1,349 nucleotides of DNA from a phage. Of the stretch, positions 1 through 268 are shown piece by piece (positions within the stretch are counted from its first letter, which is position 1; every line of letters starts with the position of its first letter). Location of the stretch: the sequence record AF017622.1. One strand, 5' to 3'. Below the pieces are notes generated by a model. It ran no database searches. It had not been told where the DNA came from and worked only from the letters and a program-made list of their open reading frames with translations. The position numbers and the translations under genes are program-made.

Positions 1-165
1 ATGTTACGCCACATGGGTTGGACCGAAGCCGCAGACCTGATTGTTAAAGGTATGGAAGGCGCAATCAATGCCAAGACCGTAACCTATGACTTCGAACGTC
101 TGATGGAAGGCGCTAAACTGCTGAAATGTTCAGAGTTTGGTGATGCGATCATCAAGAATATGTAA
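1..165 (+). CDS. icd: 3' end of isocitrate dehydrogenase (NADP-dependent), partial at 5' end; last 54 codons plus TAA stop at 163-165
   Basis: Frame 1 translates without stops to [54 protein letters not shown], which matches the C-terminus of enterobacterial Icd as I recall it. The ATG at 1-3 is an internal Met codon, not a start. This ORF is absent from the supplied track because it is short. Confidence 0.9.
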
Positions 166-188
166 TCACTACATGTGTTAAATATTTA

Positions 189-216
189 AACGGGCGTATA
201 ACACGCCCGTTGTTTT
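189..216 (+). terminator. Rho-independent terminator downstream of icd
   Basis: Perfect 9-bp stem, 189-197 AACGGGCGT pairing with 203-211 ACGCCCGTT, around a 5-nt loop (ATAAC), followed by GTTTT at 212-216. It lies 24 nt after the icd stop codon. Confidence 0.65.
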
Positions 217-232
217 ATGATGATGTAAAATC

Positions 233-268
233 TTCCCCAAAACTTTCCCCAAAACCCTTCCCCAAAAC
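233..268. repeat. Three direct repeats of TTCCCCAAAAC (233-243, 245-255, 258-268); candidate arm-type integrase binding sites of the attachment region
   Basis: Three exact 11-bp copies spaced 12 and 13 bp apart, read directly from the sequence. They sit between the icd terminator and the integrase stop codon, where arm-type sites of lambda-family att sites usually lie. The binding role is inferred. Confidence 0.45.

Follow-up and report, generated by a model that had tools for sequence, protein, structure and literature searches.

What role is played by three exact copies of an 11-bp sequence that lie in tandem in the interval between icd and an integrase gene in AF017622.1? A sequence-only reading of the 1,349-nt stretch analyzed here, called the window below, took them for probable arm-type integrase (Int) binding sites. 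Our comparisons with related phages and prophages point the same way: the window shows an attL, and the repeats in it are very probably the arm-type sites P'1–P'3 used by a heterobivalent tyrosine integrase of the phage 21 type. The integrase's Arm domain, a copy of the motif at the opposite junction of the element, and covariation between motif and Arm domain all support this assignment.

The repeats and their setting at icd

The window comes from E. coli icd, where it forms the left junction (attL) of a phage-21-type prophage. Three E. coli strains, among them A35, have chromosomal loci that match it with 100% identity, and at least 80% of it is present in 1,624 of 5,426 complete E. coli genomes, which puts a phage-21-type att/int module at icd in ~30% of them. 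Identity to phage 21 (OL657228.1, M61865.1) is 98.3% over 1,343 nt, covering icd'-att-int, and some 28 further sequenced lambdoid phages are 97–99% identical. Compared with phage 21, the window is the integrated form (attL), comes from a different mosaic lambdoid prophage (that of A35), and carries 1.7% substitutions. The A35 prophage is lambdoid and roughly 36 kb long; the window is its left junction, with icd upstream, and its far end abuts a displaced 165-bp icd remnant.

Positions 1–165 of the window (+ strand) form an open reading frame comprising the last 54 codons of icd and the stop codon, i.e., a phage-borne replacement for the icd 3' end. NZ_CP028740.1 labels this segment icd, the phage 21 record labels its counterpart an icd pseudogene fragment, and the e14 prophage feature of K-12 also begins here, 165 nt ahead of the icd stop. 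With this phage-borne 3' end the lysogen retains an intact icd, and the segment comes to lie between the core and the P' arm sites. When A35 attL, A35 attR, phage 21 attP, e14 attL, and e14 attR were aligned, five-way similarity started at window position 2, indicating that the window starts at the core/crossover boundary and that the repeats are ~230 bp away from it. This left edge of attL/attR/attP homology makes TGYTRCGCCA, at positions 2–11, the probable crossover (core) region.

The icd gene is followed by its intrinsic terminator at 189–216 (+ strand), detected as an inverted repeat and in a terminator scan. The hairpin, with a 9-bp stem and a 5-nt loop, spans 189–211, the T run comes after it, and both are carried on the phage copy. 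OL657228.1 also annotates a terminator, and almost all relatives have a comparable hairpin after the icd end. An Rfam match to tpke11 at 171–234 (19.7 bits, gathering score 43, E = 0.29) covers this hairpin and was rejected; it is most likely a generic terminator resemblance.

On the other side of the repeats, the phage-21-type tyrosine integrase gene, recognized from its open reading frame and domains, occupies 279–1349 on the minus strand. This portion encodes residues 25–380 plus the stop codon, which is at 279–281; the first 24 codons, specifying part of the Arm domain, are beyond the window's right edge. The complete int gene in the A35 locus (L003 1619–2761) encodes 380 amino acids. At the DNA level, the window int is 98.3% identical to phage 21 int.

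The repeat array is non-coding, with the icd terminator hairpin on one side of it and the int stop codon on the other. Its three exact copies of TTCCCCAAAAC, all on the + strand and all matching subsites annotated in OL657228.1, are at 233–243 (putative P'1, core-proximal), 245–255 (putative P'2), and 258–268 (putative P'3, int-proximal), the last ending 10 bp short of the int stop codon. Tandem Repeats Finder delimited the array as 232–269 with a period of 12–13, and a repeat search lengthened the unit to ~18 nt (AAAAYCTTCCCCAAAACY). An 11-mer present in at least three copies within 45 nt was found in 0 of 5,000 dinucleotide-preserving shuffles of the window, and 8-mers gave such a triple in 2 of 5,000. 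Exact matching, Tandem Repeats Finder, and the shuffles thus bear out the original description of three exact 11-bp copies in a non-coding icd-int interval. The spacing, described at the time as near-helical, is so only approximately: the copies are 12 and 13 bp apart, start to start, as against 10/11 bp for the lambda P' sites.

The sole open reading frame across the array is a mechanically called 51-aa frame at 210–365 on the + strand. It was rejected as a coding region because it has a TTG start and is antisense to the int 3' end, and because the 12/13 spacing of the repeats is not a multiple of three. The minus strand of 233–268, which is the int-sense strand, reads GGGGAAGGGTTTTGGGGAAAGTTTTGGGG; this is T4G4-like and has four G runs.

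A further copy in the opposite arm and the known systems

Additional copies of the motif at the other end of the element had been proposed as a check on the arm-site assignment, and one was found: TTCCCCAAAAT, in A35 and in the P arm of phage 21. A scan of 49.9 kb covering the whole A35 prophage, allowing ≤1 mismatch, returned four matches, three of which are the window repeats. The remaining match (TTCCCCAAAAT, L003 36969–36979) is co-oriented with these and is found at the junction on the opposite side of the prophage, ~125 bp ahead of the displaced remnant of icd. In phage 21, the identical triple repeat is in the same place as in the window, between the icd terminator and the int stop, and the P-arm copy is placed as in A35: attP has a fourth copy (TTCCCCAAAAT, L001 2367–2377) 123–124 bp left of the icd homology, in the same orientation as the triple and with a 5' flank (AAAATCTT) that also matches. 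The outermost P and P' copies of phage 21 span 396 bp (L001 2367 to 2762).

An IHF-like site is present at about −97 in nearly all the P arms compared, and the P arm of phage 21 has the IHF-like sites AATCAAACGGTTG and TATCAGCGAGTTG. A search of the P' arm (window 1–232) for an IHF-like site with up to 1 mismatch found none. OL657228.1 further annotates CII-type sites (TTGYN6TTGY) immediately to the left of the P arm (L001 2248–2296), which fit Campbell's remark on cII sites downstream of int (PMC3530522).

The integrase itself has the features expected from the sequence-only reading, which had attributed an N-terminal arm-binding domain to it. PF09003, the lambda integrase Arm DNA-binding domain, matches at Int residues 1–71 (E = 1.7e-28); Int also matches PF22022 (weakly) and PF00589 (E = 9.5e-23), and residues 5 to 378 align to full-length lambda Int (PDB 1Z1B, E = 2e-55). 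A lambda-type Xis gene (PF07825) overlaps the int start. HMMER indicated a 5-residue insertion in the Arm domain relative to lambda, aligned at lambda NLYIRN-NGYYCY. In structures of the lambda N-domain with DNA, a basic tail and the first β-hairpin contact arm DNA in the stretch where this insertion falls.

For comparison with lambda, we mapped the lambda sites with the arm consensus in NC_001416. In locus coordinates, with the core at 325–339, P1 is at 190 (+), P2 at 221 (−), P'1 at 386 (+), P'2 at 396 (+), and P'3 at 407 (+), the last overlapping the int stop codon at 413. The likeness is extensive: three co-oriented tandem P' sites at the int stop, one or more sites of the same consensus in the distal arm, P1 co-oriented with the P' sites, an IHF-type site in the P arm, a three-domain Int with a PF09003 Arm domain, and Xis adjacent. 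The differences are in the consensus, which is TTCCCCAAAAY in the window and C/AAGTCACTAT in lambda, so that the motif is indeed unlike the lambda arm-site consensus, as had been remarked from the sequence; in the spacing (12–13 bp in the window, 10–11 bp in lambda); in the number of conserved P-arm sites (one found for the window system, two in lambda); in the P' arm, where no IHF-like site was detected for the window system; and in the core-to-P' distance (+233 to +268 in the window, about +54 to +75 in lambda). The greater core-to-P' distance is accounted for by the interposed 165-bp icd fragment and terminator.

The P'1–P'3 feature is already known from the phage 21 system through a GenBank annotation of 2022. 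In OL657228.1, a misc_feature at 27563–27599 (L001 2725–2761, 37 bp) is labeled attP with three subsites, P1P2P3, and the consensus YYTTCCCCAAAA. The specificity of this integrase had been called undefined; with the phage 21 system established and its consensus already in OL657228.1, that description does not hold. The P1P2P3 sites would be better named P'1–P'3, since the crossover is about 230 bp away, and the 37 bp are accordingly best annotated as P'1–P'3 arm-type Int sites, not as attP itself. Prophage boundary callers, for their part, should allow for one matching copy ~125 bp inward of the element's other end.

Experimental work on phage 21 is said to go back further. Schneider's 1992 thesis reportedly proposed the repeated dodecamers of phage 21 as arm sites, and Wang et al. 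(J Bacteriol, 1997) are said to have tested the arm sites by deletion and substitution of attP, to have obtained a minimal attP of 366–418 bp whose outer limits include the outermost repeated dodecamers, and to have shown that phage 21 depends on an arm consensus of its own. The 396-bp span of the phage 21 copies fits the size of this minimal attP. According to a memoir by Campbell, Schneider was his student and worked on the phage 21 attachment site (PMC3530522). A full-text literature search for the motif string gave unrelated matches only; attP is not taken up in the phage 21 genome announcement, and a review treats arm-type sites only in general terms.

Motif classes across the integrase family

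The e14 element of E. coli K-12 (intE/xisE) uses the same attB in icd as phage 21 and has the same 3+1 layout with the same offsets: the P' triple comes directly after the icd terminator, 70 bp after the icd stop, and the P copy is at −127 from icdC and is followed by an IHF-like site. The motif, however, is TTATCAAAA in e14 and TCCCCAAAA in the 21-type; the Arm signature is PNLYPLYSRKVNK-YWRYKH in e14 and PNLYCKLDKRTGK-YWQYKH in the 21-type, and the two Int proteins are about 58–60% identical. Campbell's memoir records that 21 and e14 have the icd site in common but differ in specificity, that the determinants in the phage DNA were identified, and that there is no cross-excision between the two (PMC3530522). 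The difference between e14 and phage 21 in motif and Arm signature matches this lack of cross-excision, which Wang et al. (1997) also reportedly described, and it would be the arm motif, not the common attB, that makes phage 21 and e14 mutually specific. In e14, ymfD, ymfE, and lit come between the repeats and intE, a distance of 3.2 kb, which shows that the repeats are part of the att site and not a 3' element of the int gene. About 240 bp beyond the P' repeats, e14 has the sRNA C0293 (L222 1712–1783), at the place that int occupies in the 21-type element.

A scan of one genome per bacterial species found 80 relatives across Enterobacterales, with Int identities of 50–99%. In nearly every relative that adjoins the icd 3' end, three direct repeats follow the int stop, and the icd terminator follows the repeats; the repeat spacing in most relatives is 13 and then 11–12 bp. 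The copy number is two in L014 and four in L018 (Proteus hauseri and Proteus penneri, respectively) and three elsewhere. The motif follows the Int clade. Relatives with at least about 66% Int identity (the phage 21 class) have TTTTGGGGA, and three clades with about 50–62% Int identity have TTTTGATAA, TTTTGCAG, and TTTTACTG; the TTTTGATAA class includes e14, whose IntE carries the signature of that class, and Klebsiella phage Kp4865-4. This split is visible just downstream of the int stops (L004–L083) and at L221 67–99 plus 45786 and L222 1444–1476 plus 16287. Within the 21-class, all 47 repeats at 16 distinct loci (in Kosakonia, Mangrovibacter, Trabulsiella, Buttiauxella, Proteus, Morganella, Providencia, Pantoea, and others) contain TTTTGGGG without change, in contrast to their freely varying flanks and spacers. 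A variant in Pantoea conspicua (L070) has repeats that read TTTTGGTGA/TTTTAGTGG/TTTTGGCGA.

The switch of motif involves both arms together, to judge from the sequences of Kp4865-4 and e14. In Kp4865-4, whose record was deposited in prophage coordinates, TTATCAAAA occurs exactly 4 times in 45.9 kb; three copies adjoin int, and the fourth is co-oriented and 128 bp from the other end. Elements of the TTTTGCAG class have one extra co-oriented copy at −252/−253 from the triple (six distinct loci), and their triples are mostly not beside icd (L158–L219, e.g., L170, L178, L184, L201, L217). The presence of the extra copy in elements that are mostly not at icd indicates that the motif follows the integrase and not the icd context, and the arrangement implies that the TTTTGCAG class has a more compact, lambda-sized attP at other target sites. 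In phage vB_EcoM-689R6, a candidate for a TTTTGATAA-class attP, cargo directly follows int and no repeats were found within the flank examined.

The four motif classes match four Arm-domain signatures around residues 13–32. With class-diagnostic residues called at an 80% within-class threshold, the Int positions that are fixed within classes and have at least three states between them are 8, 16, 18, 21, 24, and 291; a 90% threshold returned none. Five of these six positions (8, 16, 18, 21, 24) are in the Arm domain, which makes up 20% of the protein (binomial estimate, P ~0.002). Since the four classes are also clades, the covariation amounts to only about three independent switches. Moreover, the Xis sequences group into the same clades as Int, so that covariation by itself does not distinguish Int from Xis as the reader of the repeats. 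What goes beyond the feature known from phage 21 is the set of motif classes across the family, with the Arm-domain residues that correlate with them.

Alternative readings, a proposed mechanism, and exceptions

The clade structure of Xis bears on an alternative in which the repeats are bound by Xis, or by some other accessory protein that bends DNA, and directionality is controlled through the bent arm. The Xis gene overlaps the int start, the Xis clades are the same as the repeat classes, and lambda Xis, too, binds tandem direct repeats. Lambda Xis sites are, however, confined to one arm, the int-distal P arm, beside the core-proximal Int arm site, and the repeats do not have this layout, being in the int-proximal arm with a further copy in the other arm. 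The occurrence of the motif in both arms, 3+1, instead mirrors the computationally mapped Int arm sites of lambda, and the class-diagnostic residues of Int concentrate in its Arm domain. In addition, Wang et al. (1997) reportedly found that the outermost repeats are required in Int-only in vitro integration. Taking these points together, we consider Xis or a similar bending protein very unlikely as the reader of the repeats.

Two further readings were considered. The array might act as RNA or single-stranded DNA, either as a G-quadruplex or as a 3'-untranslated element that retro-regulates int mRNA in the manner of lambda sib: the repeats are within the int 3' untranslated region, the int-sense strand reads GTTTTGGGGAA three times, with T4G4-like G runs, four of them on the minus strand, and Campbell's memoir speaks of a sib-like element downstream of phage 21 int (PMC3530522). 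Against a role of this kind, the TTTTGATAA, TTTTGCAG, and TTTTACTG clades keep the layout without the G runs, the three genes between the e14 repeats and intE leave 3.2 kb between them, a fourth copy is found across the core in the other arm, and no Rfam family reached threshold in a scan of the window; we regard it as extremely improbable. Nor is there much to be said for the array being a functionless tandem duplication generated by replication slippage in an AT-rich intergenic spacer. Slippage does occur, as the two copies in L014 and the four in L018 attest, but it would have to be reconciled with the constancy of TTTTGGGG in all 47 repeats across genera while the flanks diverged, with a layout kept among relatives of 50–99% Int identity although the motifs are class-specific, with a matching copy conserved at a fixed offset in the other arm, and with the failure of all 5,000 shuffles to reproduce the triple. 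The chance that the array is such a relic seems negligible.

The reading of the repeats as arm-type Int sites leads to the following scheme, built by homology with lambda. Each Int protomer would bind a TTCCCCAAAAY site through its N-terminal Arm domain, while its core-binding and catalytic domains would engage the core at the left boundary of the icd homology, so bridging arm and core DNA. The P-arm partner would be the single co-oriented site at about −124 from the core, followed by the IHF-like site at about −97. Int, with both arms and Xis, would assemble into an integrative or excisive intasome. Because the phage has to bring along its own icd 3' end and terminator, about 210 bp in all, the P' sites lie about 230 bp from the crossover, compared with about 55–75 bp in lambda. 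That Int is the reader is indicated by the concentration of diagnostic residues in its Arm domain, by the two-arm 3+1 layout, and by the published work; for Int occupancy, and for site use in integration versus excision, we infer the pattern by analogy. Points against the scheme are the distance of about 230 bp between the core and the P' sites, with no IHF-like site found in that interval at up to 1 mismatch, and the single well-conserved P-arm site, where lambda has two. The statement in the original reading that such repeats set directionality in lambda-family systems needs amendment: arm sites alone do not do so, Xis and differential site use being needed as well.

There are two departures from class-matched arms or integrases. 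Among IMG/VR loci that have a TTATCAAAA triple with an icd fragment opposite, most have TTCCCCAAAA at −124 and a few have TTCTGCAAAAC; the mixed-arm loci are within L084–L157 (e.g., L112, L091, L097, L099, L100, L123, L126). The best reading of their sequences is that they are junctions of tandem icd elements, in which the P arm comes from the left element and the P' arm from the right one. Most of the mixed-arm loci derive from isolate genomes, and the tandem reading is supported for L112, whose P arm is nearly identical to that of phage 21 itself, and by the single-element genomes examined (phage 21, Kp4865-4, e14), in which the arms are class-matched. Because isolate-derived UViGs cannot hold an intact attP, the mixed arms were not counted against the arm-site model.

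The other departure is L030 (Providencia alcalifaciens BIGb0506, 3001–4260), the sole mismatch between Arm class and repeat class, in which a 21-class Arm domain is beside TTTTGATAA repeats. An in-frame stop at about residue 241 makes its int a pseudogene. Up to about residue 295, the protein is 90–96% identical to 21-class neighbors; the part between about residue 300 and residue 377 is 90–96% identical to TTTTGATAA-class elements, as is the DNA downstream, which places a recombination breakpoint at about residue 295–300. This chimera probably arose by recombination between tandem elements. Another locus of the set, L031, is on the same contig, 13 kb away.

The correspondence between motif and Arm signature raises the idea that the 21/e14 integrase family carries a discrete, swappable arm-recognition code, a proposal to which we give about even chances. 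The sites, in at least four natural classes, may share a TTTT(G/A) stem and differ in the next 3–4 bases (GGGG, ATAA, CAG, CTG), and these bases may be read by residues 8, 16, 18, 21, and 24, in the N-terminal tail and first hairpin. If the proposal is true, elements with one common attB would be mutually orthogonal, which would explain the frequent tandems at icd, and the family would provide a natural parts list for engineering orthogonal heterobivalent integrases. The family comparison, with its classes, tandems, and dead chimera, could likewise help to predict cross-excision of co-resident elements and to design orthogonal integrases.

Some further observations concern the A35 prophage. 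The displaced icd remnant at its right end (L003 37094–37300) is phage-21-like (...GCCGCAGACCTG...), unlike the corresponding icd remnant of K-12 (L222 16414–16578), which reads ...GCGGCTGACCTG...; this suggests that an earlier integration/excision cycle had already replaced the A35 icd 3' end. The prophage cargo (L003 7000–8601, 12232–13865, 19428–19721, 33324–36397) comprises several defense or virulence genes, including those for a SIR2-family protein, a phosphoribosyltransferase-like and NADAR anti-phage pair, Iss, and, next to the P arm, an AAA ATPase and McrC pair.
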